Source: an uncultured Chloroflexia bacterium (GTDB taxonomy: Bacteria; Chloroflexota; Anaerolineae; CG2-30-64-16). Taken from it: a stretch of 64,000 nt of DNA. Positions 2,739-35,867 of the stretch are shown here, piece after piece (the stretch's first letter is position 1; every line of letters starts with the position of its first letter). Location: assembly GCA_963774265.1 (NCBI GenBank), contig CAVZDU010000001.1, positions 704,001 through 768,000 on the forward strand, written 5' to 3'. The notes under the pieces are model-generated. The model saw only the letters and a list, made by a program, of their open reading frames with translations, was not told where the DNA came from and did not search any database. Both the position numbers and the translations under genes were made by a program.

Positions 2739-4130
2739 CTATGCTCGTCGTAAGGGCGGCAGGCTGGCCGCCGCGATCGATTGCCCGACGCGACGGCTCT
2801 TCTCGTCTGGCAACTGGATGTTGATGGCCGCGGCAATCTCGGGAAACTCGGCTGCCCATACCGCCTTAGCGCCGTCCAGGATCAGGTTGCCGCCACGACC
2901 CGAGGTGACCCTGCCCAGGATCAATACGTGCTTGAGGTCGTAGAAACTGGCGTAGTGGGCCAGCCCGTACCCGAGATAGATGCCGATGCTCTCCCAGATC
3001 TGTTGCGCGCCGGCATGACCCGCTTCGAGGTAGTTCTGGACATGCTTCAGCTTCTCGGCCTTGGTGGCGCCCTCGGGCAAATCAATGCCCACGCGGGGCG
3101 CCAGGCGGAAGACGCACTGCTGCGAGAAGTATTGCGATCCCACGCCGATGTCGCCCGACCATTCGTCCGCGGGTGCGGCCGGGTTGTAGTCGACGGGCGC
3201 GAAGGCGAGTTCGTTCAGCCAGCCGGTGATTGATCCGTGCAGGTCCACGTACCCCGCGGCCTCGCTGGAGCCCAGCGCCATGCCCAACACGCCATCATCT
3301 TCCAGCGACATGGCGCCGGCCAGCGCAGTCACGTCGCCGTCATTGATCACTTCGAGCGGCGCCCCGAACTCGTCCCGGAGCCGCAGGAACATGGTGCGGA
3401 TTTCACCGTAGCGCTCGGCAGGCACGCCGCGAAAAAGCGAGGCCACCATGGGCTGGTTGTCCACGTAGATGCCCGCGGAGCTGCCGCCGATGGCATCGAG
3501 CCGTGTCAGTTTCGACTGGGCCAACTGTAACGCAGCGCGGATTCGGGAATAGTGATAGTTTGGATCCGCCTGTTCGACAGGTTCCCAGACGATCTCCTCG
3601 CTGAAGATCGGTTCACCGTCGACCACGGCCGACACTTTCAGATCGGATGCACCCAGATCGAAACCGATGCGGCAGCCGTCGAGATGACGGCCCAACGCCT
3701 GGCCGCCCTCCCGGGCCGGAGGAACCTCGTCGGCTGTGCACGGGACCACCGTGAATGGCCGTTGGTAGACCTGTTCGCCCAGGAAGCGGTAGTCGAACTG
3801 CCGTACGCCGTTTGGGGCGTAGACCCCGGTGATATGCTCGCCGATCGCCTGTGGGCCGCCGACAAAGAGCTGCCACCCTCCGCGTGCCCAGAGCAAGAAC
3901 TTGACCAGGCGCTCGACATGCTGCAGGTTGGCAGTGAAACGCGGGTGTCCTTGGGGGAAGACCCGCGTCGCAAAGCGTGACAGTTCGCCGTTAGCTCGTT
4001 CTAACCCCAGCACCAGGGGAGCGCCCCCGCCAGCCGCCGCGACCTCCGCGTTGAACGCGCGAATCGCCAGGACTGCCGGCCGGAAATCGGGGTCCAATGG
4101 TGGGGTGAAGCGCGGTTGGGGAAGAATCAT
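2739..4130 (-). CDS. ROK-family sugar kinase-like protein with long N-terminal extension
   Basis: 'IGFDLGAS', '[11 protein letters not shown]', 'LGSSEAAG', 'NELAF' motifs; start may be 4169. Confidence 0.75.
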
Positions 4131-4226
4131 GGATGTCAACTCTGCAACTCCGTCATCAGCTTCCAGCATATCCCTAAACAGTGGCTATCCGGGCCGTTTG
4201 TTCGCTGGCCGCCCGCCGCCGGAATC

Positions 4227-4252
4227 AAAAAGCCCCCTATCTCAGAGGGCTT
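4227..4252 (-). terminator. Intrinsic terminator after nadD
   Basis: Minus strand AAGCCCTCT-gagat-AGGGGGCTT followed by a T-run. Confidence 0.6.
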
Positions 4253-4272
4253 CGCTTTCGGACCAGTGATCT

Positions 4273-4911
4273 CTAGGCCCTGGCGCTCGACCGGTACAAT
4301 CTGCGTTCCTCGATGTACATACGCACCGGCTCCGTCACCATATACCGGATGCTGCGGCCCTTGCCCACTCGCTCGCGTAGGTCGTGCGATGCGATCTCAA
4401 GCTCCGGCATATCCAACAGCGTCACCCGCTGGCGGACTCCGGGCAGCTTCTCCTCCAGGGTGTCCCAATGGATCGGGATGTCGGGCCGGGTGAGCGCCAC
4501 CAGGTGCGCGGTGCGGATGAGTTGTGCGGGCTCGCGCCACTTTGGCAGATCGCGCAGGCTGTCGAAGCCCATCAGGAAGAATAGCTCCGCATCGGGCGGC
4601 AACTGGTCCCGCACGAGCTTCACCAGGTCGATCGTGTAGTGGGGACCGGGCCGGTCCGCATCGACGCGGGAGAGTCGGAAGCACGGGTTGTCGGCGATGG
4701 CCAGCTCGGTCATGCGCACGCGATCCGCCACCGGCGTCATCGCCAGGTCGAGCTTGTGCGGCGGCTGGCCGGCGGGCGCCAGATGCACCTCCGACAGCCC
4801 AAGCTGATCGCGTGCTTCCTCGGCCAACAGCAGATGGCCTATGTGTGGCGGATCGAAGCTGCCGCCCAGCAGTCCCACGCGCAACGTGCGCGACGCGGGC
4901 CGTGCGCTCAT
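4273..4911 (-). CDS. nadD: Nicotinate-nucleotide adenylyltransferase
   Basis: 'GGSFDPPHIGH' HxGH motif, 'PPHK', 'FLMGFDS'. Confidence 0.95.
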   Translation of the reverse strand: MSARPASRTLRVGLLGGSFDPPHIGHLLLAEEARDQLGLSEVHLAPAGQPPHKLDLAMTPVADRVRMTELAIADNPCFRLSRVDADRPGPHYTIDLVKLVRDQLPPDAELFFLMGFDSLRDLPKWREPAQLIRTAHLVALTRPDIPIHWDTLEEKLPGVRQRVTLLDMPELEIASHDLRERVGKGRSIRYMVTEPVRMYIEERRLYRSSARA

Positions 4912-10435: not shown

Positions 10436-11395
10436 ATGAAGATGTATGGCGATCTGATGGTCTTCAGTGGCACCGCGAACGCGCACCTGGCGCACGCGGC
10501 TGCGGCGCGCCTTGGGGCCTCGCTGGGTGGGGCCGATATCGTGCAATTTCCCAACAGCAACACCTTCGTGCGGCTGCATCAAAGCGTGCGCGCCAAAGAC
10601 GTTTTTATCATTCAACCCACGGCTGCGCCTACCAATGAAAACCTGATGGAGTTGTTGATCTTCATCGACACACTACGCCGCGACTCTGCAGGCCGGATTA
10701 CAGCGGTCGTACCCTACTACGGATATGGCCGGACTGACAAGAAAGATCAACCACGCGTGCCCATCACGGCGCGTCTGGTGGCTGACTTGATCGCCGTAGC
10801 GGGCGCGGATCGCTTCGTCACTATAGATTTGCACGCCAAGCAGATCCAGGGCTTTTTCTCGATTCCGTGCGATGAGTTGCCGGCGTTGAGCCTGTTCGTA
10901 GAGCACTTTCGCAATCACCCGGTGCCAAATGCCGTCGTTGTCTCACCCGACATCGGCGCGTTGCGCCGGGCGCGCAACTTCGCGGAGCAGCTGGAATTAC
11001 CTCTCGCGGTCATCGAGAAGCGGCGTTCGCTCGACGGCAACCGAACCGAAACGCTCAATATCATCGGCGACATTGAAGATAAACACGTCATTCTGGTCGA
11101 TGATGAGATCGATACAGCGGGCACCCTGGTGCGTGCCGCCAGCTACATTCGGGATCAGGGCGCGCTTGACATCGTCGCCTGCGCCACCCATCCCGTGCTT
11201 TCTGAGCCGGCTGTCGACCGGATTCGCGAGAGCGTACTGAGCGAGGTCATATTCTGCGACACCATCGCCATTTCCCAAGACAAATGCCGGCGCAGTGGGG
11301 GTAAGATATCTATACTCCCCGTCGCCCCGCTCCTCGCCGATGTCATGCAGCGTATCCATGAGGGGCGCTCGGTCGGCGAGCTATTCGACGAATAA
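10436..11395 (+). CDS. prs: Ribose-phosphate pyrophosphokinase
   Basis: '[11 protein letters not shown]', '[11 protein letters not shown]', '[10 protein letters not shown]'. Confidence 0.95.
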
Positions 11396-11447
11396 CGTAC
11401 TCAAGGGCGGGCAAGACCGCTCTGGCCCTAGAAACGGAACAACAACT

Positions 11448-14417
11448 GTGTTTAAGAACCTGGTCAAGAAAGTCTTTGGTGATCCCAACGACAAAGAAGT
11501 TCGGCGCATGAGTCCGGTTGTCGAGCAAATCAACGCACTCGAGCCCGAATTCGAGCGTATGAGTGACGACGAACTGCGCGAGCAGACTGAGATGTTCCGC
11601 GCTACCATCGCGCAACGTGTCGGATCGCTGCCCGAGGAGTTGGCTGTTGCGCGCGAAGCGCTGCTCCAGGAAACCGACGCAAACGACCGCATCCAGAATC
11701 AGATCGAGGTTGACCGGGTACAGAAGGAGTTGCGTCAGGCCGAAGCCGATGCGATGGATGAGATCACCCCGCGCGCGTTCGCCGCGGTGCGGGAGGCGGC
11801 CAAACGCAGTATCGGGCTGCGCCACTACGATGTCCAGATGATCGGCGGGATGGTGCTGCATCAGGGCAAGATCGCCGAAATGAAGACCGGCGAAGGCAAG
11901 ACCCTCGTTGCCACACTGCCGCTGTATCTCAACGCTCTCACCGGTCGCGGTGCGCACCTGGTCACGCCCAACGATTACCTGTCCAAGTATGGCGTGCAGT
12001 GGATGGGCCCGATCTACCACATGCTCGGCGTCAGCGTCGGCGTCATCCAGTCAGCAGCGGCCAATCCCGAGCTCGGCTCGTTCGTCTTCGATCCTGACTT
12101 CCCTGACTGCGGACGACCGCTACCGCAACCTGCGCCCGGTCAGTCGCCGTGAGGCCTATCACGCGGACATCACCTACGGCACGAATAACGAGTTTGGTTT
12201 TGACTATCTGCGCGACAACATGGTCTCGGACCTGGCCGAATGCGTCCAGCGCGACCTGCACTATGCCATTGTCGACGAGGTCGACAACATCCTTATCGAT
12301 GAGGCGCGCACTCCGCTCATTATCTCCGGACAGGCGCAGGAATCGTCCGACCTGTACTCGAAGTTCGCCCAGTTGGTGCGCCGGCTCTCGCCCGAGCGTG
12401 ACTACAAGGTCGATGAGAAGGATCGGCTCGTCACCCTCACCGACGAGGGCATCGCGCGTGTCGAGAACCTGATGGGTCTTTCTGCGGGACAGAGTCTCTA
12501 CGACCCCGAGAACTATGAGATGACTCCCTACCTGGATAATGCACTGCGCGCTAACGTCCTCTATCACCTGGACCGCGATTACATCGTCAAGGATGGTGAG
12601 GTCATCATCGTGGACGAGTTCACCGGTCGCCTGATGTACGGCCGGCGCTTCTCCGAGGGTCTCCACCAGGCCATCGAGGCCAAGGAGGGCGTGCGGGTGC
12701 AGCGCGAATCGCTGACCCTGGCTACCATCACCTTCCAGAACTACTTCCGCATGTATGAGAAGCTCGCCGGCATGACCGGCACCGCGATGACCGAGGCGGA
12801 GGAGTTCGGCAAGATCTACAACCTGGACGTGATTGCGATCCCGACTCAACGAAGCCGTCGTCCGCGAAGACTACTCCGATCAGGTTTACAAGTCGCAGCG
12901 CGCCAAGTTTCGCGCGGTGGTGAATGAAATCGAGCAGCTACATCAGAAGGGCCAGCCCGTACTCGTCGGCACCGTGGCCATCGAGACGTCCGAGATGCTC
13001 TCCGACCTGCTCAAACGCAAGGGTGTGCCGCACAACGTGCTCAACGCAAAGCAGCATGAGCGCGAGGCTGGCATCATCGCACAGGCCGGACGCCCGGGCA
13101 CCGTGACCATCGCCACTAACATGGCCGGCCGTGGCGTCGATATCTTGCTGGGCGGCAACGCGGACGGCATCGCGCGCGAGCGGCTGCGCAAGAATGGCGT
13201 CAACCTTGCCGAGCTTTCCGAGGACGACCCGGTCTGGCTGGAGGCCCTGGCCGAGGGCAAAGCTGAGGTCGAGGTCGACCGGGCGCGCGTCATCGCGGCG
13301 GGCGGCCTTCACGTCTTGGGCACCGAACGCCACGAGGCGCGGCGCATCGATAACCAGCTCCGCGGCCGTTCGGGCCGCCAGGGTGATCCGGGATCCTCGC
13401 GCTTTTTCGTCAGCCTTGATGACGACCTGATGCGCCGGTTTGGTGGTCAGAGTGTCGCGAACATCATGGATCGGTTCGGCCTGGAAGAGGACGTGCCTAT
13501 CGAACATAACATCGTCAGCAAGGCCATCGAGAACGCCCAGGTGCGTGTCGAGGGCTATAACTTCGACATCCGTAAGCACGTGCTTGAATATGATGATGTT
13601 GTTAACAAGCAACGCGAGGTCATCTACAACCAGCGCCGCCAGATCCTGAGTGAGCCGACCATGCGACCCACCATCATGGGCATGATCGAGGACGAGCTGC
13701 GCAAGTTGGTGATGCTAGTCACGTCCGATCAGGAGAATGAGCGGAACCAGCCCTTGGAACGCAGCGAGTGGGACCTGGAGTCTCTCGCCGGTGAGGTGCA
13801 TAAGATTTTGCCCCTTCCGGAGGGCGAAGACCCTGAGGCCTGGCGCAGTTTCACCGCCAATGATTTGGCAGATCATTTGGTTGCCTTGGCTGAAGCAGCC
13901 TACGACGCGCGGCGAACAGTCGATGGGCGAGGCCGACATGCGCCGGCTCGAACGCCTCGTCATGCTGCGACTCGTAGATAACCGCTGGATTCGCCACTTG
14001 ACTGATTTGGATGAATTGCGCGAAGGCATCGGATTGCGCGCGTTCGCCCAACTGGACCCGCTGGTCGCTTACAAACGCGAGGCCAGTGAGATGTATGCGG
14101 ACTTGGTCGCGTCGATTTCGCACGACATCGCCTATACGATCTTCCACATGCAGCTCATGACGAGACCCGTCGCTCCGCCGGTTCGCCAAATTCAAACCAA
14201 CCGTAGCGATGGCGCCGCCCAACCCGTGCGTGCCACCAGCAAACAGCAGCTCGGCCGTAACGACCCGTGCTGGTGCGGCAGCGGCAAGAAGTACAAACAG
14301 TGCCACATGCGCGAAGATATGGGCCGCGCACCGGCGACTGCCGCGACGGGGACGGGGGGCGGCGCCGCGGCGCCTTCCGCCTCCCGTCGGCCGGCAAAAC
14401 CGGGTAAACGCCGCTAG
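11448..14417 (+). CDS. secA: Preprotein translocase SecA (three apparent frameshifts near 12100, 12845, 13910)
   Basis: 'EMKTGEGKT', '[15 protein letters not shown]', 'TNMAGRG', '[11 protein letters not shown]', SEC-C '[18 protein letters not shown]' across consecutive frames. Confidence 0.95.
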
Positions 14418-14493: not shown

Positions 14494-15870
14494 ATGCCGC
14501 CAAAGCCACGCGAATGGATCTACCTTCCGCGTCACACCGACCTGACGCGCATCTTCGACGCTGCGTGCAGTATGGACTGCCTTTCCGTGGTCGGCGTGAG
14601 CAACCTCGGCAAGTCGGCCACCCTGCGCGCCCTGTGCGATCCGGCCGTGCAGACTCAGCACCTATCCGTCGATGCGCGCGATTACCTGTTTGTCTACATT
14701 GACTTCAATCAGATGCTAGTCATGAGCGACCAGGCGTTTTATGAGCTGATCCTTCGCGCATCCATCGAAGCCATTCGCAGCCAGAACATTAATGGCGATG
14801 TGCTGCGCAAGGTGGAGGCCGCTTACACCAGCCTGGTTGCGCCGGGGAGCCCGTTCGAGGTCCCTCTGGGGTTCACCCAAGGCATGGCAGCCATCGGCGA
14901 TCAACTCGAGCAGAAGGTCGTTTTTCTCTTTGACGAGGTCGATGGGCCGGTGGCCGGGATCGATGGCCGCGTTTTTCTCAATCTGCGCGGGCTGCGCGAT
15001 CGCCACCGCAATGGTCTGACCTATGTCACCGCAACCAACCGCCGGCTGGATCAAATTCGACGCGACTCGGATGTGTTGGAGTTCGCCGAGATGTTCGAGC
15101 ACAGCACGCTGTATATCTCGATGCTGCAGGAGGCCGAGATTCGCCAGCTCGCCATGCGCTATGCGGAGGAAGAAGGCCTCACTTTCAGTGAGGACGACTT
15201 CGCATATATCCGCCTGTGGAGCGGGGGACATCCAGCCCTGCTCGAAACCACGTGTCGCATCCTTGGCATGCTGACCGGCCGGCCCATGCGCGATTCTGCG
15301 CAGGACTGGATCATCCACCGCCGAGCGACTGAAGTGCTGACTCAGGATCTCAACGTGATCGGCGAGTGCCGCAAGATTTGGAACGATCTGGACGACGTTG
15401 AGCAGGAGGCGCTGTTGGCAGTCTCAGCCGGCAGTGAGAACGCCCTCGCCGGAGGGCTCGATAGCCTGATGGCGAAGCACCTGGTTACGCTCAATGGCGC
15501 AGAGTACAAGATTTTTTCGCGCTGCTTCGGGGAGTTCGTTGGTCGACAGAGTTTCTCGCGGCGGCCCGGCCCCCAGGCGTTTCGTGTCGATCCTGAAAGT
15601 GGCGATGTGTGGGTCAACGGCGAAAAGATCCCAACCCTCACGAACCTGGAGTATCGCCTCTTACTGCTCTTGTACGGCCGCATCGGCAAGATCGTTACCA
15701 AGTACGAGGTGGTGGAGGCGGTCTGGGGCGAGGATTATATCGACGACGTAGACGATGCGCGCATCGAAAAACTCGTCAGCCGTCTGCGTCAGAAGGTCGA
15801 GCCGGATCCTGCCAACCCTAAGCACCTGCAAACCGTGCGTGGACGTGGATACAAGCTCGCAGACAGCTAA
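14494..15870 (+). CDS. P-loop ATPase (STAND/AAA-like) fused to OmpR/PhoB-type winged-helix DNA-binding domain
   Basis: Walker A 'GVSNLGKS', Walker B 'VVFLFDE'; C-terminal 'LTNLEYRLL...VWG...VSRLRQKVEPDPANP..LQTVRGRGY'. Confidence 0.85.
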   Translation: MPPKPREWIYLPRHTDLTRIFDAACSMDCLSVVGVSNLGKSATLRALCDPAVQTQHLSVDARDYLFVYIDFNQMLVMSDQAFYELILRASIEAIRSQNINGDVLRKVEAAYTSLVAPGSPFEVPLGFTQGMAAIGDQLEQKVVFLFDEVDGPVAGIDGRVFLNLRGLRDRHRNGLTYVTATNRRLDQIRRDSDVLEFAEMFEHSTLYISMLQEAEIRQLAMRYAEEEGLTFSEDDFAYIRLWSGGHPALLETTCRILGMLTGRPMRDSAQDWIIHRRATEVLTQDLNVIGECRKIWNDLDDVEQEALLAVSAGSENALAGGLDSLMAKHLVTLNGAEYKIFSRCFGEFVGRQSFSRRPGPQAFRVDPESGDVWVNGEKIPTLTNLEYRLLLLLYGRIGKIVTKYEVVEAVWGEDYIDDVDDARIEKLVSRLRQKVEPDPANPKHLQTVRGRGYKLADS

Positions 15871-15933
15871 TGCGAGGATGATAAAATAACGGCAGGTCCT
15901 GCAACCCATCGGTGTTTGTTTACGTGCAGACCT

Positions 15934-15988
15934 TGTCAGAATCCTGTCCGCCGCGGGTCATGCGAAGCCCGGCTGGTTGAATTATGAT
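15934..15988 (+). promoter_or_regulatory. Pho-box-like 11-bp direct repeats and -10 box for the pspA operon
   Basis: TGTCA 15934, TGTCC 15945, GGTCA 15956; TATGAT 15983-15988. Confidence 0.55.
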
Positions 15989-16038
15989 ACTGACAGCAAG
16001 TATCTGAAATCCCATTTCTTGTTCAGGAGGCGTACGCC

Positions 16039-16725
16039 ATGGCAACCCTTCTCGAGAAGGTCCAAACGCTCATCTCGGCCAACCTGCACTACCTGGTCGA
16101 TCAGTCGCTTAAGCAGAACTCGATCGCGGTCATCAATCAATACATCCGCGAGGTAGAGAATAACCTCGATGACCTGTCGGAGGCGACCGCGACCGTCGGG
16201 GGCAATGTAAAGACCATCCGGCGTAAGTACGAGGAGTTTCAGGCCAAGGCCGCGGAACTGGATCGCAACATCGATCTGTTTCTGCGCGAGGGTCGTGATG
16301 ACCTGGCCCGAGCCGCCCAGAGCAAATACAACTCGACTCAGCGTCTGGTGGAAACCTACGCGCAGCAAATGGAACAGATGCAGCGCGAGTATCAGAACCT
16401 GATCGACGCGCGGCTCAAGTTGGAAGCCAAGCTGACCACCATCAAGCAGGAGCGCGAGGAGTTGGAGGCCCTGCTCGAGCTGGCCAAGTCCAAGGAAATC
16501 ACTGCGAAGACCATCAGGTCTCTGGACGATTTGGCCGGCGTGGGCGATGCGGACGTGGCGCGCATTGCCGACTCCATTCGCCAACGTCTGGATCGCGCCT
16601 CTGCAGAGAGCGAGATGCGCGCGGCAAGCCTGGACAAGCAGATGGACGACTTGCTGGATCGCGGCGAGCTCGACAACCAATTGACTGCCCGCAAGGCGCG
16701 GTTGGGGCTGCAGAAGGGCGGCTGA
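16039..16725 (+). CDS. PspA/IM30 (ESCRT-III-like) protein 1
   Basis: N-terminal amphipathic helix 'MATLLEKVQTLISANL', long coiled coils, 'GRDDLARAA', C-terminal 'LTARKARLG'. Confidence 0.85.
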   Translation: MATLLEKVQTLISANLHYLVDQSLKQNSIAVINQYIREVENNLDDLSEATATVGGNVKTIRRKYEEFQAKAAELDRNIDLFLREGRDDLARAAQSKYNSTQRLVETYAQQMEQMQREYQNLIDARLKLEAKLTTIKQEREELEALLELAKSKEITAKTIRSLDDLAGVGDADVARIADSIRQRLDRASAESEMRAASLDKQMDDLLDRGELDNQLTARKARLGLQKGG

Positions 16726-16782
16726 TTCGTACCCTGGAAGCCAGGTTTCTGTACGGAGACCTGGCTCCCGTAGGAGCATCCT

Positions 16783-17466
16783 ATGGCAACTCTTCTCGAC
16801 AAAATTCAAACCCTGGTCTCTGCTGATATCAACCGGCTGGTTGACCGTGGACTGGGCGCGACCAACCAGGAGGCCATGTACCGGCATCACGTCCGCGAGT
16901 TGCAGACCATGCAGGAGCAGCTGAACAGCCAGATGGTCAGCCTGCGGGCTGAAATCACCCAGATGCACCGCCGGGCGGAAGAACAGCTAGCCGTGGTCGC
17001 GCAGCAAGACGCGGAAGTGGATCGGCTGCTCCAAGAGGGTCTCCAGGAAGATGCGTTGGCCGCGCAGGACAGGCTGAACCAGAATCGCCTGAACGCCGGG
17101 ATGCTGACCGAGCGGGTGGAACGGCTCGAGTCCGAGTATGCCCAGCTGGCTGAAGCTAAGGCCCAACTCGACACTCGTATCGACACCCTGGTGCGCAGCG
17201 AGCCGGAGGTCCGCAGCATGTTGGGCTTGTCCCGTGCCAAACAGCTCACAGCCGCGGCGCGCGAGTCGTTGGACGACCTGGAGGGTGTAGGTGACCCGGA
17301 CGCCGCCCGCGTGGTCGGCGACATCCGCACCCGGCTGGCCGAAGCTGAGGCGCAGCTCCAGGAGTTGGAGCAGCGGGGCCTTGCCCGGGGCGAAACCCCA
17401 GAAGTTCTGAAACGTAAAGAGTTAGAGGCGCAGTTGGAAGCGCGCAAGGCGCGGCTGGGCCTGTAG
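16783..17466 (+). CDS. PspA/IM30 (ESCRT-III-like) protein 2
   Basis: Paralogue of the upstream gene: 'MATLLDKIQTLVSADI', 'SLDDLEGVGD', 'LEARKARLGL'. Confidence 0.8.
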   Translation: MATLLDKIQTLVSADINRLVDRGLGATNQEAMYRHHVRELQTMQEQLNSQMVSLRAEITQMHRRAEEQLAVVAQQDAEVDRLLQEGLQEDALAAQDRLNQNRLNAGMLTERVERLESEYAQLAEAKAQLDTRIDTLVRSEPEVRSMLGLSRAKQLTAAARESLDDLEGVGDPDAARVVGDIRTRLAEAEAQLQELEQRGLARGETPEVLKRKELEAQLEARKARLGL

Positions 17467-17483
17467 GCATAGAAGGAGACCCC

Positions 17484-18827
17484 ATGTCCCTGGCACCGAT
17501 CATCGGAGCGCTGGCCGTTGGCCTGATCGCGCTCGTCCTGGCAATTTACTTCTTTGCCGCGCGTAGCGGACAGCGCACGCAGGCCATCTTCTTTCTGATC
17601 GTCGGCCTGGTACTGTTGGTGGTCGGTGGCGCGCTGGGTTGGCAACGATTCAGCGCGACCAACCCGGGCGGTTCTGCACCGCTGGTCGCCACCCCCAAGG
17701 GGCCGATCCAGATCCGCATTCTCACTGCGCTCCCCATCGAACCGTGGGTGCGCGAGGCTGCCAAACAGTTCAACGAGGGCATCTTCACCCAGGACGGTCA
17801 ACCGGTCGAAGTCCAGGTGACGGCCATGGACGGGCTGACCGCGTTGGGCAAGTTCGACCGCGACGACTTTGGGTCGCTCGGCGATCGTACGCGTGATCAG
17901 CTCACCCCCGAAGAACTTACCCGTCTGGAAAGCACCTTCCCGACGGTGTGGATTCCCGACAGCCGCTATCTTGTCGAGCTGGCGAATGCGTCTTACAAGG
18001 AGCGCATCGGCCGCGATGTCTTCCTGACCGACGGCGAGTATCGCGCGCGGCCCATCGCCATCTCCCTGTTTGTATGGGGTATCTACCAAAGCCGCTCTGC
18101 CGTACTGGAGCGAAAGTTCGGCGAGATCACATGGGCAACGATTCATGATGCCGCCATCGCCAAGGGCGGCTGGCCCGAACTGGGTGGTGAAAAGAGTTGG
18201 CAATTCTTCAAGCTTGTTGTGCCCAACCCCCGGCGCAATGTCGGCGGTCTGGCCGCAATGATCGCCGCGGCCGGCGAGTATTACGACCGAACGAACATCT
18301 CGGTCGACGATGTGATGGCTCCCGAATTTCAGAAGTGGCTCGGTGAGTTGATGAGTTCACTGACGGATGTCAGCGGCGCGAGCGCGAACACGGCGGAGGA
18401 CTTCGCCCTGTTTGGCTATTCGGCCGGCGACGGCGGACAACTTCTGGAAAGCGATCTGCTCAATAACATGGAAGGTATACGCACGCGCTGGTCCGACCCG
18501 CTGGTGATCCGTTATCCCAAATACGTCACGTGGTTTGACTTCCCGTATACCGTCTGGGTCGGCCCCGAAACCACGGCGGCCGAGAAGAACGCCGCGCTTC
18601 AATTCCAGCAGTTCCTGCTGACGCCTGACATGCAACGTCTGGCCGTGCAGGCCGGCCTGCGGCCCGTGATCAACGAGGTGAACGTCACCGAGGGTCAAAA
18701 CCTCTTCACGCAGTGGCAGGCGCAGGGCGTCGAGGCGGTTGTGCCGCGCACCACGCGTATGGCCTCGCCTAGCCGCGATGTTTTGCTTGCGCTCCTGCGC
18801 TGGTTTGATCTGAACGTGGGGAAGTAA
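17484..18827 (+). CDS. Membrane-anchored solute-binding-fold protein (SBP_bac_11-like)
   Basis: Two N-terminal TM segments; 'PTVWIPDS', 'ESDL', 'FQQFLLTPDMQRLAVQAGLRP'. Confidence 0.7.
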   Translation: MSLAPIIGALAVGLIALVLAIYFFAARSGQRTQAIFFLIVGLVLLVVGGALGWQRFSATNPGGSAPLVATPKGPIQIRILTALPIEPWVREAAKQFNEGIFTQDGQPVEVQVTAMDGLTALGKFDRDDFGSLGDRTRDQLTPEELTRLESTFPTVWIPDSRYLVELANASYKERIGRDVFLTDGEYRARPIAISLFVWGIYQSRSAVLERKFGEITWATIHDAAIAKGGWPELGGEKSWQFFKLVVPNPRRNVGGLAAMIAAAGEYYDRTNISVDDVMAPEFQKWLGELMSSLTDVSGASANTAEDFALFGYSAGDGGQLLESDLLNNMEGIRTRWSDPLVIRYPKYVTWFDFPYTVWVGPETTAAEKNAALQFQQFLLTPDMQRLAVQAGLRPVINEVNVTEGQNLFTQWQAQGVEAVVPRTTRMASPSRDVLLALLRWFDLNVGK

Positions 18828-18828
18828 C

Positions 18829-20559
18829 ATGAAGAAGACGCGGAACGATCAGCGTACCGTTGTCATCGCCCTCGTCGCGGCCTTGGCGGTCTTTCTCCTC
18901 CTATGTGTGGTGCTGGCGCTGATCTTCATCCCCGCTCGCCGGACGACAACTGTGGAGCCGGGTGTTGCGACGCAGTCCGACCCGCGCTCGGCCACCCTGG
19001 TCATTGCCCATTCGCCGGAGAAAGCTACGCTCGTTCAGTCCCTGGTGGAGCGCTTCAACCGAGAGAAGCAGCGCACAGCCGACGGGCAAACCATGCGCAT
19101 CGAGCTGCTGGAGTTGACATCCGAGGAGATGGTTAACCAGGCGCTGGCCGGCCTGAACACCTACCAGGCCATCACACCGGATTCTTCCTTGTGGCTCGAT
19201 CAGCTCAATAGGCGGTGGGCGCAAAGCCAATCCGACCAGTCGGAGCCGGGCGCAATCACATCCAGCCTGACCGGCGAGCCGGTGCGTTACGCCATCAGCC
19301 CGATCGTCATTGCAGCCTGGGAGGATCTCGCCCGATCGCTGGGTTGGCCTGACCAGCCGGTGAGTTGGAGCACTTTGCAGAGCCGTGCGCAGGGGGACGC
19401 CAACTTCCGCTGGAGCCACCCGAGCACCGCGTACGCCAGCGGCCTGCTAGCTACACTGGCCGAGTTTTACGCGGGTGCTGGCGTCCAGCGTGGGCTTACT
19501 GCCGAAATGGCTCAGGACCCGAAGACGGTCGAGTATGTCTCAGCGATTGAGAAATCGGTGAAATACTACGGCGAAGCCGAGCTGGCCGTCATCCAGCGCG
19601 TGGCGCAAGATCGCACCGCCCTTGACGCGTTTGTGGTCTCGGAACAACTTGTCATCGCCTTCAATACCGGCAAGTTCGGAAATGCTTCGCCGTCAAACAA
19701 ACTCGTCGCCCTCTATCCCGCGGAAGGCTCCTTCTGGGCTGACCATCCGCTGGCATTGCTTGAGACGCCCGCATTGACCGACAACCAGCGGCGCACCTTC
19801 CAGGCGTTTCGCGAATTCCTGGGCGGGGCCGAAACGCAAAAATCCATCATGGAAGCAGGTTATCGGCCAACGGATCTGAGCCTGTCGCTCACCGGCGAGG
19901 GCTCTCCCTTCTCCGCGACAAACGGCGTCGATCCTAAACAGCCGCAGACCACGCTCCAACTGCCCACGGCCGACGTTGTGCAGGTGGTCCAGAACGTGTG
20001 GGCTTTGACGAAGCGAAAGACGAACGTGTTTTTAGTTGTTGACACGTCCGGTTCCATGCAGGGCGACAAGCTGCGCAGCGCTAAAGCCGCACTCCGCACC
20101 TTCCTTGCGCAAATCCCGAGCGACCAGGAAAAGGTGGGACTTGTTGAATTCAATACGGCTGTGGCGAACATCATCGAATTGGACATGCTGGCCAATAACC
20201 GGGCAGTTTTGAACAGTGCCGTGGATGGGTTGACCGCAAACGGCAATACGGCTCTCCTCGACGGAGTGCGCGTGGCGTATGCACGCCTCCAACAGAATGC
20301 GGAACCCGAGCGCATCAACGCGATCGTGGCGATGACTGACGGTCGCGAGAATGCATCGATGGTCAGCCTGCGCCAACTCGTCGGCGAAATTCAAGCGAAC
20401 AACCCCAACTTGCCTGTCGTCATCTTCTGCATCGCATATGGCAGTGACGCCGACTATGCCGTACTCCAGGCTATTGCAGACGCAAGCAGCGGTCAGGTGC
20501 GCGAAGGCAACGAGGAGACGATTCGTGACTTGTACAAGATCCTGTCGAGCTATTTCTGA
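18829..20559 (+). CDS. Membrane-anchored solute-binding-fold and von Willebrand A domain protein
   Basis: N-terminal TM; SBP motifs 'TPDSS', 'SPIVIA', 'DHPL', 'GYRP'; vWA MIDAS 'DTSGS...T...MTDG'. Confidence 0.85.
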   Translation: MKKTRNDQRTVVIALVAALAVFLLLCVVLALIFIPARRTTTVEPGVATQSDPRSATLVIAHSPEKATLVQSLVERFNREKQRTADGQTMRIELLELTSEEMVNQALAGLNTYQAITPDSSLWLDQLNRRWAQSQSDQSEPGAITSSLTGEPVRYAISPIVIAAWEDLARSLGWPDQPVSWSTLQSRAQGDANFRWSHPSTAYASGLLATLAEFYAGAGVQRGLTAEMAQDPKTVEYVSAIEKSVKYYGEAELAVIQRVAQDRTALDAFVVSEQLVIAFNTGKFGNASPSNKLVALYPAEGSFWADHPLALLETPALTDNQRRTFQAFREFLGGAETQKSIMEAGYRPTDLSLSLTGEGSPFSATNGVDPKQPQTTLQLPTADVVQVVQNVWALTKRKTNVFLVVDTSGSMQGDKLRSAKAALRTFLAQIPSDQEKVGLVEFNTAVANIIELDMLANNRAVLNSAVDGLTANGNTALLDGVRVAYARLQQNAEPERINAIVAMTDGRENASMVSLRQLVGEIQANNPNLPVVIFCIAYGSDADYAVLQAIADASSGQVREGNEETIRDLYKILSSYF

Positions 20560-21440
20560 TGTCTGAATCGATCCGCGATCAACTGGAACAGGACGTCGGC
20601 AAGGCGCTGCTGCGCAATGCAATTTTCCGGGTGGAGAGTGCATTGATGGTAGGTGGCACCCTTCTGGCGACGGTATTCCTGCCAAACGTGATTCCGTGGA
20701 TCCCGTGGTTCGCCTGGCCTATCGTGGGCATCATCGGCGAGGTTGCCATCATCGTCTCCACGCTCACCGACAAGGCCGAGCAGCAGAAGGCGATCGAGGC
20801 GCTGTTCCGGGAGAAATACACCTTTTCCGGCATTCACGACCGCGCGCTCCTGTCCAAACTGAACGAGGCCGAACAGTACCGCCAGCGGATTCAGGCGCTG
20901 ATCGAGCAACATCGCGAGGGCCTGCTTCGCGATCGCATGAAAAGCACCACCGACCAGGTCTACGACTGGATTGCGAACATGGTGGCTTTGGCTCGTCGTC
21001 TGGACACGTATCGGTCCGACCGGATCCTCCGGCGGGACCTGGAGAATGTGCCGAAGGACATGGAGCGGCTCAAGGCGCGCCTTCAGATGGAGCGCGACCC
21101 ACACGTGCGCGATCAGATGAGCGAGACCCTGGAGTCGAGTCGCGAACAAGCTGCGTCGCTGAACGAACTCCGGGCGCGCATGGATCGCGCTGACCTGCAG
21201 CTTGATCACTCATTGGCTGCTTTGGGCACGGTTTACTCACAACTTCTGCTCATCGGGACGAAAGATGTCGATTCGGATCGCGCCGAGCGTCTACGTGATG
21301 ACATTCGGGGCGAAGTGCTCGCGTTGAAGGATATCGTCGATTCGCTCAACGAAGTTTACACGTCAACCTCGACAGAGCTATCTTCCGAAGAGGCCGAGGC
21401 TGCGCGCCAGCTACAGAGGACCGAACGCGCGGGTAGATAG
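20559..21440 (+). CDS. Two-TM coiled-coil membrane protein of unknown function
   Basis: Start overlaps upstream stop (TGATG); two hydrophobic helices then a long helical region. Confidence 0.7.
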   Translation: MSESIRDQLEQDVGKALLRNAIFRVESALMVGGTLLATVFLPNVIPWIPWFAWPIVGIIGEVAIIVSTLTDKAEQQKAIEALFREKYTFSGIHDRALLSKLNEAEQYRQRIQALIEQHREGLLRDRMKSTTDQVYDWIANMVALARRLDTYRSDRILRRDLENVPKDMERLKARLQMERDPHVRDQMSETLESSREQAASLNELRARMDRADLQLDHSLAALGTVYSQLLLIGTKDVDSDRAERLRDDIRGEVLALKDIVDSLNEVYTSTSTELSSEEAEAARQLQRTERAGR

Positions 21441-21536: not shown

Positions 21537-22682
21537 ATGAAGCATATGCGTCTTGGGATAGTTCTTCTGGTCTTGGCCATTCTCGTTTCTGCGTGTAATG
21601 GCGGGGGGGCAGTGCCGACGAAAGGCGAGGTGACTGTCTACGTGGCCGGGCCGCTCTCAGGCTTCCAGGCCAACACGGGACAGACCGTCGCTGGGGGCGT
21701 GCGCCTCATGGCTGAGCAACTGAATCGTGCCGGTGGTCTGCTGGGTTACAAGGTAATGGTTGTCGCGCTCGACGACGAGGCCGACTCGGGTGTGGCCGTG
21801 AGCGTGGCGGAGCAGATCAAAGAGGCTGTCAACCGCGGTGAGAAGGTTGTGGGTGTGATCGGTCATCCGAACTCGGGCCCAACAGCGGCCGCGATGGGTG
21901 TCTACAAGGACCTGGACCTGGTGGTCATCACACCGACCGCCTCCGAGGTTGCGCTCACGCAGCAGGGGTATCGTAATTTCTTCCGCGTTAATGCCGCGAA
22001 CGACCTTCAGGCGCAGACTGGCGCGGAGTACCTGGTCAACAAGCTAGGCGCAAAGAAGGTCGCGGTCCTGTACAACGATGATGCGTATGGCATTGACCTG
22101 GGCAGGCTCGTCGCAGAAGACTTGCGCACGCTGGGCGCCGTGGTGCCCGTGTCACTCCAGGTGAAGGTCGAGCAGAACCGATTCGGGGATGAAGTCGCCA
22201 AGGTCAAACAGGCGGGCGTCGATGCGATTTACTACGCTGGCTACGAAGTGGAGTGCCCTTACTTGCGGGCGGATTTGCGCGATGCCGGGTTGGACAAATT
22301 GACCTTCATGGCTTCGGACGGTTGCTTCCTGTCTACCACCATTGATAGCGCAGACGGCGCGGCAGAGGGTATATACGTCACCGGCTTTGCCCCCAGTCCA
22401 AAGACCTCGGTCGATCAACAGTGGGTGTCCGCCTATCAGGCTGTCGAATTTCGCAATCCAGATACCTATTCGGTCAACGGGTATAGCGCGATGCAGGTGT
22501 TGGCTGAGGGTGTGAAAAAGGCCGGCAGCCTGACCGGATCGAAGGTGGAGGCTGCGATCCGCAGCCTCGATATTAAGACCCCGCTCGGCCAGGTCCAGTT
22601 TCAGGATAACGGCGACCTGCGCAAGGCCCAGATCTACATCTTCCAGGTGAAAGACGGTCAGTTCGCGCAGGTGGCCCCTTGA
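21537..22682 (+). CDS. Branched-chain amino-acid ABC substrate-binding lipoprotein (LivK-like), no permeases adjacent
   Basis: Lipobox 'LVSAC'; 'AGPLSG', 'NRAGGLLG', 'LDDEAD', 'FFRVNA', 'DDAYG'. Confidence 0.85.
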   Translation: MKHMRLGIVLLVLAILVSACNGGGAVPTKGEVTVYVAGPLSGFQANTGQTVAGGVRLMAEQLNRAGGLLGYKVMVVALDDEADSGVAVSVAEQIKEAVNRGEKVVGVIGHPNSGPTAAAMGVYKDLDLVVITPTASEVALTQQGYRNFFRVNAANDLQAQTGAEYLVNKLGAKKVAVLYNDDAYGIDLGRLVAEDLRTLGAVVPVSLQVKVEQNRFGDEVAKVKQAGVDAIYYAGYEVECPYLRADLRDAGLDKLTFMASDGCFLSTTIDSADGAAEGIYVTGFAPSPKTSVDQQWVSAYQAVEFRNPDTYSVNGYSAMQVLAEGVKKAGSLTGSKVEAAIRSLDIKTPLGQVQFQDNGDLRKAQIYIFQVKDGQFAQVAP

Positions 22683-25531: not shown

Positions 25532-27368
25532 CTAGATGATCTCCAGCTCCTTCAGCTTCGCCTCCGGCACCACGCCGTCCACCCAGCCGCGCAGCCGGTA
25601 GTACTCCTCCAGCATCTTGTCCAGCTCGCAGACCTGGCCCTTGGAGCCCTGCATCGTTGGAGGGCTCCTCCAGGAAGCGCTTCGGCAGGGTGTCGCTGCC
25701 TTCGCGGAAGCCGTTCAGGTTGTTGTAGTGGCGCTCCAGGTTGTAGACCCGCTCGCCCACCGTCAGCAGGTCGCCGGCGGTGCATGGCGCGCCGGTGATC
25801 GCCGCGAACTGCGCCGCAAAGCCATCCAGCGACTCGGCAGAAGGTGGAGAACTTGCACACGTCCAGGCAGTCGGTGATGGCGTGGACGTTCTGGAAGATC
25901 ATGATCAGGTTGCCCTTGCCTTCCCAGGCCAGCGGGTCAACCACCGTCGGCGGGGCCGAGCACGTTGCCGACAACCTCGGCGGCCGGCGTGTAGCCGCGC
26001 AGGTGGCACGCGCCGCGGTTCTGGTGGCGTAGCCGATGCCCATGCCCTTGATGCCGCGCGGGTCGTAGGCCGGGATGCCCTGATCCTTGCACGCCATGGC
26101 AAGCTCGGGATGGCCCAGCTTCTCCGCCGCCTTGCCGGTGCCTTCGGCCAGGATGTCGCCGATGCCCTCGCGGAACGCGATCTTGCGGGCCATCTCCACC
26201 ATGCCGTGGGTGTCGCCCCAGGCCAGGCCGTCGCCGTTGGCGTAGCCGCTTCTGGGTGTACTCCATGTACATCGCCAGCACGGTGCCGATCTCGATGGCG
26301 TCGAAGCCGTAGTCGTTGGCGCGATCGATCATGTAGGCGACCGCGGCGATGTCGTCGTTGCCGCAGATGGCGCCCACCGACCAGGCCGGCTCGTACTCGA
26401 CGCTCTCCATGTGGACCTTGAACGGCCCTTCCTTGACCTCGACCTCTTTCTTGCAGGCCACCGGGCAGGCATGGCAGGTGGGATCGTTGACCAGGATCGT
26501 GTCCTTGACGTACTCGCCGCTGAGCAGCTCGGCGCGCTCGCCGAAAGCAGGTCTCCTGGCCGTTGCGCACCGGCAGCGCGCCGATGTTGCTGGTGATGTT
26601 CATCAGCACGTTGGTGCCGTAGACCGACAGCCCGCCCTTGCGCGGCGAGGTCAGGACCCGCTCGTCCGATGAGCTGCGCCAGGGCGACCTTCTGCGCCGC
26701 CTTGAACGCCTCTTTGTCGGCCGGCCGCGGCCGGTTGGCGTGCTCGCCCTTGATCACGATCGCCTTCAGGTTCTTGCTGCCGCCCACGCAGCCGGTGCCG
26801 CCGCGGCCCGAGGAGCGATCGTTCTCGTTCATCCAGCAGGCGAACTTCACCAGGTTCTCGCCGGCCGGGCCGATGGCGATGACGCTGAGGTCCTTGGCGC
26901 CGCCGTGGCGCTCCTGCAGGATCTTGATCGTCTCATGGACGTGCTTGCCCCACAGATCGCTGGCATCGTGCAGCGTCACCTTGCCGTCCTCGACGTAGGC
27001 GTAGACCGGCTTCTCGGCCTTGCCCTTGAAGACCAGCCCGTCGAACCCGGCCCACTTGAGCCGCGCCGCCGACCAGCCGCCGTGGTGCGAGTCGGTCACG
27101 GTGCCGGTGAGCGGCGACTTGGTGCACGACGGCCATGCGGCCGCTCAGGTTCACGTCGGTGCCGGTCAGCGGCCCGTTCATGAAGCAGAGGATGTTGTCC
27201 GGCGAGAGCGGATCCACCGGCGGGCCGTTGTCGAAGACGTACTTCACTCCCAGGCCGCGCGCGCCGATGTACTTGCGCGCATCTTCGTCCGCGATCGGCT
27301 TGTACTCGATCTGGCCCTGTGGTCAGATCGATCCAAGCCACCCGATTGGTATAACCACCAAGTTCCAT
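25532..27368 (-). CDS. aor: Tungsten-containing aldehyde:ferredoxin oxidoreductase (multiple frameshifts)
   Basis: 'DPLSPDN..GPLTG', 'DSHHGG', 'IGPAGENLV', 'GRGG.G.V.GSKNLKAI', 'EYE', 'DYGFDAI', 'IAFREGIGDILAEG', 'AYDPR', 'DTLPKRF'. Confidence 0.9.
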
Positions 27369-34660: not shown

Positions 34661-35867
34661 TCAGAACTGCCCCTGCATCGAACCAGCGTATCCGGTCAGT
34701 TCGACATAGCCATCGCCAGACACTGCCCGCGCACCCAGGGTTCCCGTGACCCGGACAGCACCCTCCCAGTACGAGTAGGACACATTCATTTCCTGGTCCT
34801 GAAGGTGCGGTGTGATTGTCAGGCTCAGCTCCGCAGAAGGGATATCCAGCCGCCAACCCGACGGATATTCTGCGTCGGTGTGTGGGCTGCGCCAGCGCCC
34901 CGTGGTTTGAAGTGAGAAGTAGGGGCGGCCCTCGCGGCCGCCCTCCTCCGTCGTCAGAGTCAGTGTCGCTCCGCTTGCGGCAATAAGCGTCCCGCTCGAG
35001 AAAGCATCGACGCTGCCATCATTGCGGCGCAATTGGAATACCATCAATTCAGTGTCGTTATCGAGCTGGATGCTAAACCAGTCCCACCCCACCTGCTCGC
35101 GACCCAGAGCGCTTGTGCTGTATTCGTGATCCATCCATCCCAGGCCGCTCACGGTGAGGGTCTTGCCCTGCACCGTCACCGTGCCCTCCGCCGCCATGCG
35201 CGTCAGGCTGTAGTAGATGGAGGCGTTGGTCGTCTCCTCTCCCTTTTGCGAGTACCCCTGGTCGCCCTGCAGGACGGGGCCCTTCATGTCCGTTAGCTCG
35301 AGATTGAGCTGGATATCACCCGCGGCCGCGGTCAGCCTTTGGGGCGCCATGCGATAGGGTAAACTCCGGCTTCCCAGGACTGCTTCGCCCGTCACCGACC
35401 AATCTTCCAGCCAGACGCGAAACGGCTCGGCCTGCGCGCCGGCAACGCCGCCTGCGCCCCGCGCCAACTTCTCAAAGGCGGTGTGCCTGCCACCCGCTAC
35501 GTCGGTGATTGCGAAGTGCGCCATATAGACCTGGTCTGCCGCCCAGTCAGAGGTGCGCGCCGCGCGTTGGTCCGGCGGTGTGAGCGCACGGCGAAAGAAC
35601 GTGAGTTGATACCCGAAGTGCTCGCCGTTTTCGCTCTGGAGATTGCCTGTGTAGTACCACCACTCGGTCTGGTAATCCTCGTGCGGCCCGTGATCCTGCG
35701 GGAACTGGGGTACGATTCCGGGCTGCGCCTGCGCAAACCCAGCCGTGTCCGCCGGAGCGGCCTCGGCCACCAGGCTCGCGCGCACCTCGCGTCCGTTCGC
35801 GCGGCCACACCGCCCAAGTCGCAGCCGCGACGGCCACTACCACCATTACAATCCAGATCCGTTTCAT
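34661..35867 (-). CDS. AttH/CrtC-like lipocalin-fold secreted protein (frameshift near N-terminus)
   Basis: 'FPQDHGPH...EWWYYTGNL', 'WMDHE', 'GWDWF', 'YWEG', 'GYVELTGY'. Confidence 0.88.

Follow-up and report, generated by a model that had tools for sequence, protein, structure and literature searches.

A conserved PspA gene cluster with membrane-anchored binding proteins in Chloroflexota: an apparently undescribed variant of the phage shock protein system

[quoted passage not shown] In the PspFABC system of E. coli and the LiaIH-GFSR system of B. subtilis, a PspA effector is accompanied by one or more small membrane partners and by a dedicated activator at the pspA promoter. A phage shock protein (PSP)-type gene cluster with the same three ingredients is described here from a 64,000-nucleotide stretch (the window, whose coordinates are used throughout) of the genome of an uncultured Chloroflexota bacterium, an assembly of 5.5 Mb in 10 contigs that is 84% complete. 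All genes of the cluster lie on the forward strand. They encode a regulator, two PspA proteins, two membrane-anchored solute-binding proteins (SBPs), one of which is fused to a von Willebrand factor A (vWA) domain, a two-transmembrane (2-TM) helical protein termed CC2TM, and a LivJ-type lipoprotein. The activator here appears to be an ORC/STAND-like ATPase joined to an OmpR-type winged helix-turn-helix (wHTH), unlike the sigma-54 enhancer-binding protein or response regulator of the two model systems, and in a search confined to the cluster PspB, PspC, LiaI/LiaF and PspF were not among the Pfam matches of its 8 proteins.

Two other described systems resemble the cluster in their membrane component. 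In the ClgR-PspA-PspM-PspN system of M. tuberculosis the gene of a two-TM protein follows pspA and a dedicated transcription factor is present, as in the Chloroflexota cluster; the latter, however, has no ClgR or PspN, and its three outside binding proteins are extra. Ravi et al. 2024 (PMC11237479) state that homologues of PspM are lacking outside Actinobacteria. The XpaC-TelA (YaaN) pair of Firmicutes likewise brings together a cytoplasmic helical stress protein and a 2-TM protein whose helical domain is cytoplasmic, but in the Chloroflexota cluster the stress protein is PspA, and CC2TM adjoins pspA rather than telA. By the account given in PMC6811118, deletion of xpaC in E. faecium shifts the daptomycin minimum inhibitory concentration 8-fold, and does so only with telA intact; these genetics show a helical stress protein under the control of a 2-TM partner, which offers an analogy for CC2TM. 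Induction of XpaC-TelA by stress in Listeria is likewise reported (PMC12791056).

The nearest likeness in gene content is found among the PspA/Snf7 operons that Ravi et al. describe in the main text of PMC11237479, which include an AAA+ ATPase, an ABC ATPase and permease, and a "PBPB+OmpA" binding protein. What these operons have in common with the Chloroflexota cluster is that a gene of the PspA family stands together with one for a solute-binding protein of the extracytoplasmic side. The AAA+ and ABC proteins and the OmpA wall anchor are theirs, whereas neither AAA+ nor ABC proteins occur in the Chloroflexota cluster, which instead has TM- or lipid-anchored SBPs, one of them vWA-fused, plus a 2-TM helical protein. 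The main text of that survey makes no mention of vWA, TelA, XpaC or PF10112, and its supplementary tables and web application may list such a neighbourhood; the main text of a second PSP survey (PMC9239133), taken apart from its supplements, does not mention XpaC, Chloroflexota, TelA, VWA or solute-binding proteins. Literature searches found no paper on a PspA-SBP-vWA cluster. A 2026 preprint reports TerD and VWA genes near phage pspA. An earlier note, made from the window's sequence alone, had called the system possibly undescribed, and for the main texts of the two surveys that description holds, their supplements lying outside the comparison. The cluster is thus a real, conserved and apparently undescribed PSP variant; the kind itself, PspA with a membrane partner and a regulator, is known.

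The reading that we favour, with moderate confidence, is that the cluster is a PSP-type membrane-maintenance system of its host and of many Chloroflexota of the Anaerolineae and Caldilineae type, in which CC2TM couples PspA to the outside proteins in the manner proposed below. It would give a defined and widely conserved set of PspA partners for a phylum that is abundant in soil, sediment and wastewater and little studied in cell biology: a candidate adaptor family, a trio of SBP, vWA and LivJ proteins without a transporter, a proposed new kind of ATPase-wHTH activator, and a candidate operator.

The layout of the cluster is compact. The regulator gene (14494-15870) is followed by pspA1 (16039-16725), which is preceded by an AGGAGG sequence at 16025-16030, and by pspA2 (16783-17466); then come the genes of the first binding protein, SBP1 (17484-18827, 447 amino acids), of the SBP-vWA protein (18829-20559, 576 amino acids) and of CC2TM (20559-21440, 293 amino acids). 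From the list of open reading frames (ORFs), the gaps are 57 nucleotides between pspA1 and pspA2, 17 between pspA2 and SBP1, and 1 between SBP1 and SBP-vWA, while SBP-vWA and CC2TM overlap by 1 nucleotide. ORFs, Pfam matches and a TM scan agree with the gene content and coordinates that the earlier note gave for these six genes, and the spacing that led it to speak of a compact operon is as it said. The genes that it named do form one conserved unit, but its boundary was drawn too early, leaving out the LivJ-type gene at 21537-22682.

Comparison with related genomes shows that this arrangement is kept. The first comparison took in 12 orthologous loci, all from relatives within the family and class; the order pspA1-SBP1-SBPvWA-CC2TM is retained in all 12, with LivJ next in 11. 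A scan at one genome per species then found 310 genomes with a CC2TM relative, of which the best 80 loci, i.e., the closest relatives, were scored with hidden Markov models (HMMs) built from the first 12; genes were counted only in loci with enough flanking sequence. PspA is present in 56/58 of these, SBP1 in 64/66, SBPvWA in 70/73, and LivJ, directly downstream of CC2TM, in 72/73. In 43 loci the contig extends 6 kb or more upstream and 2.5 kb or more downstream, and 40 of these have all five core genes (pspA1, SBP1, SBPvWA, CC2TM and LivJ) co-directional and in order; the exceptions are one locus without LivJ (L044), one with its genes in frameshifted pieces (L072) and one with CC2TM and LivJ only (L112). 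The best 80 loci are all labelled Chloroflexota (Anaerolineae, Anaerolineales, Caldilineales, Ardenticatenia) except for one 3-kb contig binned with Gammaproteobacteria. Because kin share gene order by descent, such counts overstate independence, yet relatives whose proteins are down to 37-50% identical still keep the order. The gene-neighbourhood survey that the earlier note had proposed therefore found synteny conserved, in 40/43 loci and in other Chloroflexota classes, to a degree far beyond chance, and the conserved unit includes LivJ.

A wider view comes from an even sample of 301 Chloroflexota genomes, in which the CC2TM family was found in 9, the window's own included. Seven of the other 8 carry pspA upstream of CC2TM on the same strand and within 6 kb. 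Four of these (G052, G101, G250, G274) belong to other classes and hold the complete pspA-SBP1-SBPvWA-CC2TM-LivJ series, with PspAs recognised by Pfam or by our own HMM, and three (G071, G289, G084) have pspA and then CC2TM with no SBP genes, a TPR gene lying between the two in G289. In all, the pair is found without any SBP in 4 loci (L032, L037, L038 and L118), the last being from Ardenticatenia. Since PspA and CC2TM also occur together in this reduced form, they are the constant core of the system and the outside proteins a frequent addition, and CC2TM is thus the likely membrane partner of PspA.

The PspA proteins themselves are recognisable by profile. PspA1 matches PF04012 (PspA/IM30) over residues 4-221, in effect its full length, with 72 bits against a cut-off of 33.9. 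PspA2 falls just under that cut-off, at 31 bits, but is 36% identical to PspA1 over the full length, and the N-terminal helix is common to both. A joint profile of the two matches the solved Vipp1/PspA structure 6zvr over positions 4-222 (E 1.9e-18) and Snf7 more distantly (E 6e-4). On these profile matches the cluster PspAs are members of the ESCRT-III-fold PspA/Vipp1 family, as the earlier note had supposed. At E values below 1e-5 the genome, 84% complete, holds two PspA matches and no more, pspA1 and pspA2; as the only clear PspA homologues there, they mark the cluster as the organism's PSP system.

The pairing of two PspAs is a narrower feature. PspA2, a fast-evolving paralogue, is present in 19/54 loci, all of one family, and in 6/12 of the orthologous loci, all of the window's own family, so the PspA dyad is a family-level feature and not part of the general system; nor would the hetero-polymer of PspA1 and PspA2 that the earlier note had put forward be a general feature. 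In a tree, PspA2 sequences are monophyletic (20 tips, support 0.97) on a stem of 1.08 substitutions per site, compared with 0.10 for the cognate PspA1 clade, and they are restricted to loci whose PspA1 sequences form one clade. Their placement outside all PspA1 may be due to long-branch attraction, and the tree fits equally a recent duplication with fast divergence or an older copy lost elsewhere, without separating the two. PspA2 could be a lineage-specific specialised or co-polymerising copy.

Two smaller features touch the pspA genes. A conserved basic C-terminal tail, QL-x-(A/E)R-K/R-x-RLGL, is found in PspA1 (16690-16725), PspA2 (17431-17466) and the PspAs of dyad loci and is a candidate partner-binding motif; PspA1 and PspA2 share it in the form QLxARKARLGL. 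In the spacer between pspA1 and pspA2 a consensus scan marks a short GC hairpin followed by TTTCTGT (16733-16745), which may be a partial terminator; the scan for promoters and terminators gave 11 sites against 8.1 expected, not above shuffled sequences.

On the outer face of the membrane, three binding proteins are predicted. SBP1 has TM helices at residues 6-24 and 34-52, and behind them, on the extracytoplasmic side, a type-II binding-protein fold; its Pfam matches to SBP_bac_8 and SBP_bac_11 are weak (E about 0.01, 16 bits), and its assignment draws also on two alignments, one to the SBP portion of SBP-vWA genes and one to a paralogue whose SBP_bac_11 score is 58 bits. The SBP-vWA protein has a single TM helix (11-29), an SBP fold (SBP_bac_11, PF13531, 44.5 bits) and then a VWA domain (PF00092, 63.7 bits). 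The earlier note had found the metal ion-dependent adhesion site (MIDAS) of this domain intact, and D405-x-S407-x-S409 proves to be invariant in 66/66 orthologues, with T474 and D504 at least 97% conserved. The closest solved vWA domains are the extracellular ones of ITIH and alpha2-delta, and a homologue search with SBP-vWA returned close orthologues only, named in one source "Ca-activated chloride channel homolog". The third protein is the LivJ-type lipoprotein (PF13458, Peripla_BP_6, 187.5 bits), which carries a signal sequence with the lipobox LVSAC. Judged by positive-inside N-termini and TM counts (two helices in SBP1, one in SBP-vWA, two in CC2TM), the SBP, vWA and LivJ parts would lie outside and the helical domain of CC2TM inside.

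SBP_bac_11 and Peripla_BP_6 are classic families of transporter receptors, and the SBPs might then be orphan transport or chemoreceptor-like receptors that serve transporters encoded elsewhere and stand beside pspA through shared regulation or inherited order. That the loci are kin, so that the counts overstate their independence, would suit this lesser rival. Yet the order survives down to 37-50% identity and in several classes, hardly any space separates the genes (17 nucleotides, 1 nucleotide, an overlap), and fusion of an SBP to vWA together with TM anchors is not the design of a transporter receptor. As the earlier note had remarked, ABC permease or ATPase genes are not nearby: ABC transporter genes are lacking between 1658 and 35785 of the window, beyond which lies an FtsX fragment at 35864-36427, and also among the 39 ORFs considered on the flanks of 10 related loci. 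A cognate permease or ATPase is absent from the cluster, in which the binding-protein fold is recognised in SBP-vWA and the LivJ-type protein, and we consider the orphan-receptor explanation improbable.

The same outward-facing proteins could be cargo or clients of the system. PspA, as an ESCRT-III-type polymer bending the membrane away from the cytoplasm, would act with CC2TM to shape or sustain a patch of membrane or an outward vesicle, and the tethered SBP, vWA and LivJ proteins carried on it would serve in adhesion and in the capture of nutrients. This is the main rival to the reading that we favour. It agrees with the tethering of all three binding proteins to the membrane with no transporter beside them and with the adhesion or matrix character of the closest solved vWA domains, and the ProX binding protein encoded at ESCRT loci of archaea has been interpreted as binding cargo (PMC10936438); nor need the regulator sense the outside, as discussed below. 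Cargo is, however, not needed for the core, because dyads of PspA and CC2TM exist without any SBP. The PspA proteins characterised to date act mainly in membrane repair. On balance the cargo explanation is unlikely, if somewhat less so than orphan receptors.

CC2TM is the component to which the proposed coupling falls, and the earlier note had cast it as a coiled-coil membrane adaptor, a role that fits its linkage to pspA, the tightest of any gene here, and its retention at the four loci mentioned above where SBPs are absent (L032, L037, L038, L118). It has a TM hairpin (residues 27-45 and 51-69), and a structural model (pLDDT 77) is all-helical, with a short cytoplasmic helix, the hairpin and a helical bundle at about 95-292. 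It has no Pfam match, and so presents itself as a candidate adaptor family with no Pfam model. Foldseek found no match in the PDB at E <= 0.001, and comparison of its profile with PDB sequences found nothing; in a wide fold search (VIA) BAR-like and other helical bundles scored highest, at Z 11.6, which falls short of the roughly 13 that helical proteins are expected to give and is within their noise. Among 1.84 billion proteins the family counts 811 representatives at E <= 0.001, a sizeable number.

Resemblances to named proteins were sought at several levels. Three CC2TM homologues of about 70% identity reach 24-26 bits against PF10112 (XpaC, Halogen_Hydrol), whose cut-off is 29.8; among four orthologues, one reaches 31.4 bits summed and three 17-19 bits. 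In the ESM Atlas the clusters of Rv2743c (PspM) are the nearest named neighbours of CC2TM (21/30 named matches, score 0.92), which is a lead only, and PF25587 (PspM) has no match at E <= 0.001 among 103 CC2TM family representatives. Comparison by hhalign with the 265-residue neighbour of TelA in the relative L024 was negative. With profile links this weak, the likeness is one of resemblance and CC2TM is filed under neither XpaC nor PspM. Since its profile links to XpaC, PspM and the 2-TM proteins adjacent to TelA are weak or missing, it is position and architecture that argue for the adaptor role; the architecture and position that it shares with PspM and XpaC probably say how it works. A complex prediction of PspA1 with residues 70-293 of CC2TM (score 0.15, mark 0.32) counts neither way.

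The C-terminal domain of CC2TM also occurs apart from pspA. It is fused elsewhere to Ser/Thr kinases (4/103) and to TCAD9, BTAD and pentapeptide+2TM modules (P0178, P0215, P0238, P0256, P0141, P0249), which suggests a portable signalling or interaction domain. The window's own genome encodes, outside the window (L036 8190-9416, G000:C1), a 408-amino acid protein with only the CC2TM-family C-terminal helical domain (E 9e-43); its gene sits between those of a UbiD-like decarboxylase and LigT, with no PspA nearby.

In the mechanism that we propose, CC2TM would be the membrane partner of PspA, in a role like that of PspB/C, LiaI, PspM or XpaC, and would hold or release PspA at the membrane. Its TM hairpin would contact the TM anchors of the SBP proteins, and the state of the outside complex, set by ligand or by metal-dependent contacts of the vWA domain with the wall or among the proteins themselves, would be passed to the cytoplasmic domain of CC2TM, which would then modulate PspA polymerisation on the inner leaflet. 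The regulator would activate the operon, PhoB-style, through three repeats spaced at 11 bp, and a multi-GAF histidine kinase would take over regulation in other lineages. Should PspA indeed be gated by the outside proteins, the cluster would rank as the first PSP system whose input is ligand binding outside the cytoplasm, and it would tie TelA/XpaC to the PSP field.

It is important to set out what weighs against this proposal. The window's CC2TM has no match to PF10112 at E <= 10, and PF10112 matches only 1/103 of the CC2TM family representatives at E <= 0.001. PF25587 gives in the whole genome, at E <= 1, a single match of 10.5 bits that lies elsewhere and not on CC2TM, and hhalign finds nothing (probability 0.4%) between CC2TM and the TelA-adjacent 2-TM proteins of four other Chloroflexota. 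Two loci break the association with PspA: L112 has CC2TM and LivJ but, over the 10 kb upstream, lacks both PspA and SBPs, and at L035, from G055, an NMT1/OmpA-type SBP and SBP-vWA accompany CC2TM on a 10-kb contig that has no PspA. The regulator is absent from 18/49 loci, GAF kinases standing in its place in other lineages. The suggestion that the outside proteins sense a ligand and recruit PspA, which the earlier note also made, is an inference, and transcription may respond to a cytoplasmic signal, with the outside proteins clients rather than sensors.

The full order at L035 (G055:C463, 315-9764) is an Orn/Arg-decarboxylase-like gene, CC2TM, the NMT1/OmpA-type SBP, SBP-vWA, a second CC2TM-like gene and an amine oxidase gene. 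There may be a link here with polyamine metabolism; Ravi et al. likewise connect that metabolism with PspA.

The regulator (14494-15870) has a start that fits its orthologues. It matches Trans_reg_C (PF00486) with 69 bits, and AAA_16 with 17.8 bits against a cut-off of 32.6; a Walker A sequence, GVSNLGKS, lies at residues 34-41, and Pfam finds no receiver domain (no Response_reg match). In a model of pLDDT 87, the N-terminal 360 residues take the form of an ORC/Cdc6/STAND-like ATPase and are followed by an OmpR/PhoB-type winged helix. Foldseek matches, overall from 4e-7 to 4e-5, include ORC2 (1w5t, E 3.7e-7), Cdc6, the archaeal ATPases 2qen and 2fna, CED-4 (2a5y) and Roq1, and the wHTH superposes on VicR/YycF with a root-mean-square deviation of 1.4-1.7. 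The modelled fold thus points to a soluble P-loop ATPase of the ORC/Cdc6 or STAND type joined to an OmpR-type wHTH, AAA_16 remaining below its cut-off.

The regulator gene is present in 9/12 orthologous loci and in 31/49 loci with enough flank. Caldilineales-type loci and L053 have, upstream and on the same strand, a gene for a large multi-GAF histidine kinase; transcriptional input therefore differs between lineages. With a soluble regulator, for which such kinases stand in elsewhere, the outside proteins need not be the transcriptional sensor, and it is this that lends the cargo explanation part of its appeal.

Between the regulator gene and pspA1 lies a candidate operator (15934-15962), TGTCAG-N6-GTCCGC-N5-GTCATG, whose GTC repeats start at 15935, 15946 and 15957, a period of 11 bp. 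It is marked by invariant columns in the aligned regulator-pspA1 spacers of 7/7 genomes, and its pattern occurs once in the 5.5-Mb genome, a reversed control giving 0. A candidate -10 box, TATGAT (15983-15988), follows 20 nucleotides after the third GTC repeat, and three of its letters, T, A and T, do not vary among the 7/7 spacers. The 11-bp period is the one expected of tandem OmpR/PhoB-type sites that stand in for a -35 box, and the triple direct repeat would occupy the -35 position of the predicted pspA1 promoter.

The relation to TelA was raised by the earlier note, which mentioned SBP and SBP-vWA pairs beside TelA-type genes. One relative of the same genus bears this out: in a second cluster, at L024 (G007:C6, 3407-15210), a BTAD regulator, a 1-TM protein and a TelA-like protein (28 bits) are encoded beside a tandem series of three SBP-vWA paralogues, with multi-TM proteins in between. 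The link does not extend to 10 TelA loci from other Chloroflexota classes, which have no CC2TM, SBP1 or full SBP-vWA match, one of them having a vWA gene; swapping with TelA is therefore not demonstrable inside Chloroflexota beyond L024. The host genome, at its 84% completeness, has no match to TelA or PF10112 at E <= 0.1. In the phylum sample TelA is found in 32/301 genomes, a count that takes in three flagged as unpublished (G078, G266, G311), and CC2TM in the 9/301 given above; their zero overlap says nothing, because the expected overlap is only about 1.

A bolder proposal would make PspA and TelA interchangeable cytoplasmic effectors of one widespread and undescribed trans-envelope device, made of tethered binding and vWA proteins outside, a 2-TM helical adaptor, and a helical polymer inside. 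The Chloroflexota form would be the ESCRT-III-based one, in which ligand or metal-dependent contacts outside gate the site of PspA polymerisation, or in which the device selects surface proteins for outward vesicles, as a bacterial counterpart of ESCRT cargo sorting. We regard this as speculative and give it little weight, about as much as we give the cargo explanation.

Immediately upstream of the cluster lies a SecA gene (11295-14417, forward strand), and SecA is found just upstream in L014, L021, L025, L026, L048 and L074 as well. This recurrence would be explained if the cluster were a secretion or wall-assembly stress module, the vWA and SBP proteins building a wall- or sheath-attached structure and PspA buffering the membrane during export; the conserved MIDAS likewise suggests metal-dependent contacts with protein or polymer. 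But many loci have no adjacent SecA and carry GAF kinases or unrelated genes upstream, and the window's cluster proteins include no wall-binding domain, an OmpA-like domain occurring in the variant L035. Like orphan receptors, this is a lesser rival, and it appears to us just as improbable.

In the window the SecA gene is split over four overlapping frames (11295-12152, 11908-12927, 12833-13981 and 13737-14417). In relatives SecA is one ORF of 972-1003 amino acids, so at least 3 frameshifts must be present, and these are most likely assembly indels. Frameshifts also interrupt SBP-vWA or other cluster genes at L025 (7419-9177, G007), L041 and L072, where they are more likely to be assembly errors than decay, the assemblies being of long-read style. 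In L015, a relative from another family, tandem repeats together with genes for a 172-amino acid 2-TM protein and a 222-amino acid lipoprotein are inserted inside the cluster (3905-4433). Downstream in the window, an aldehyde:ferredoxin oxidoreductase gene (25552-27099, reverse strand) is likewise in pieces, with AFOR_C and AFOR_N on separate ORFs, which fits the same indel problem.

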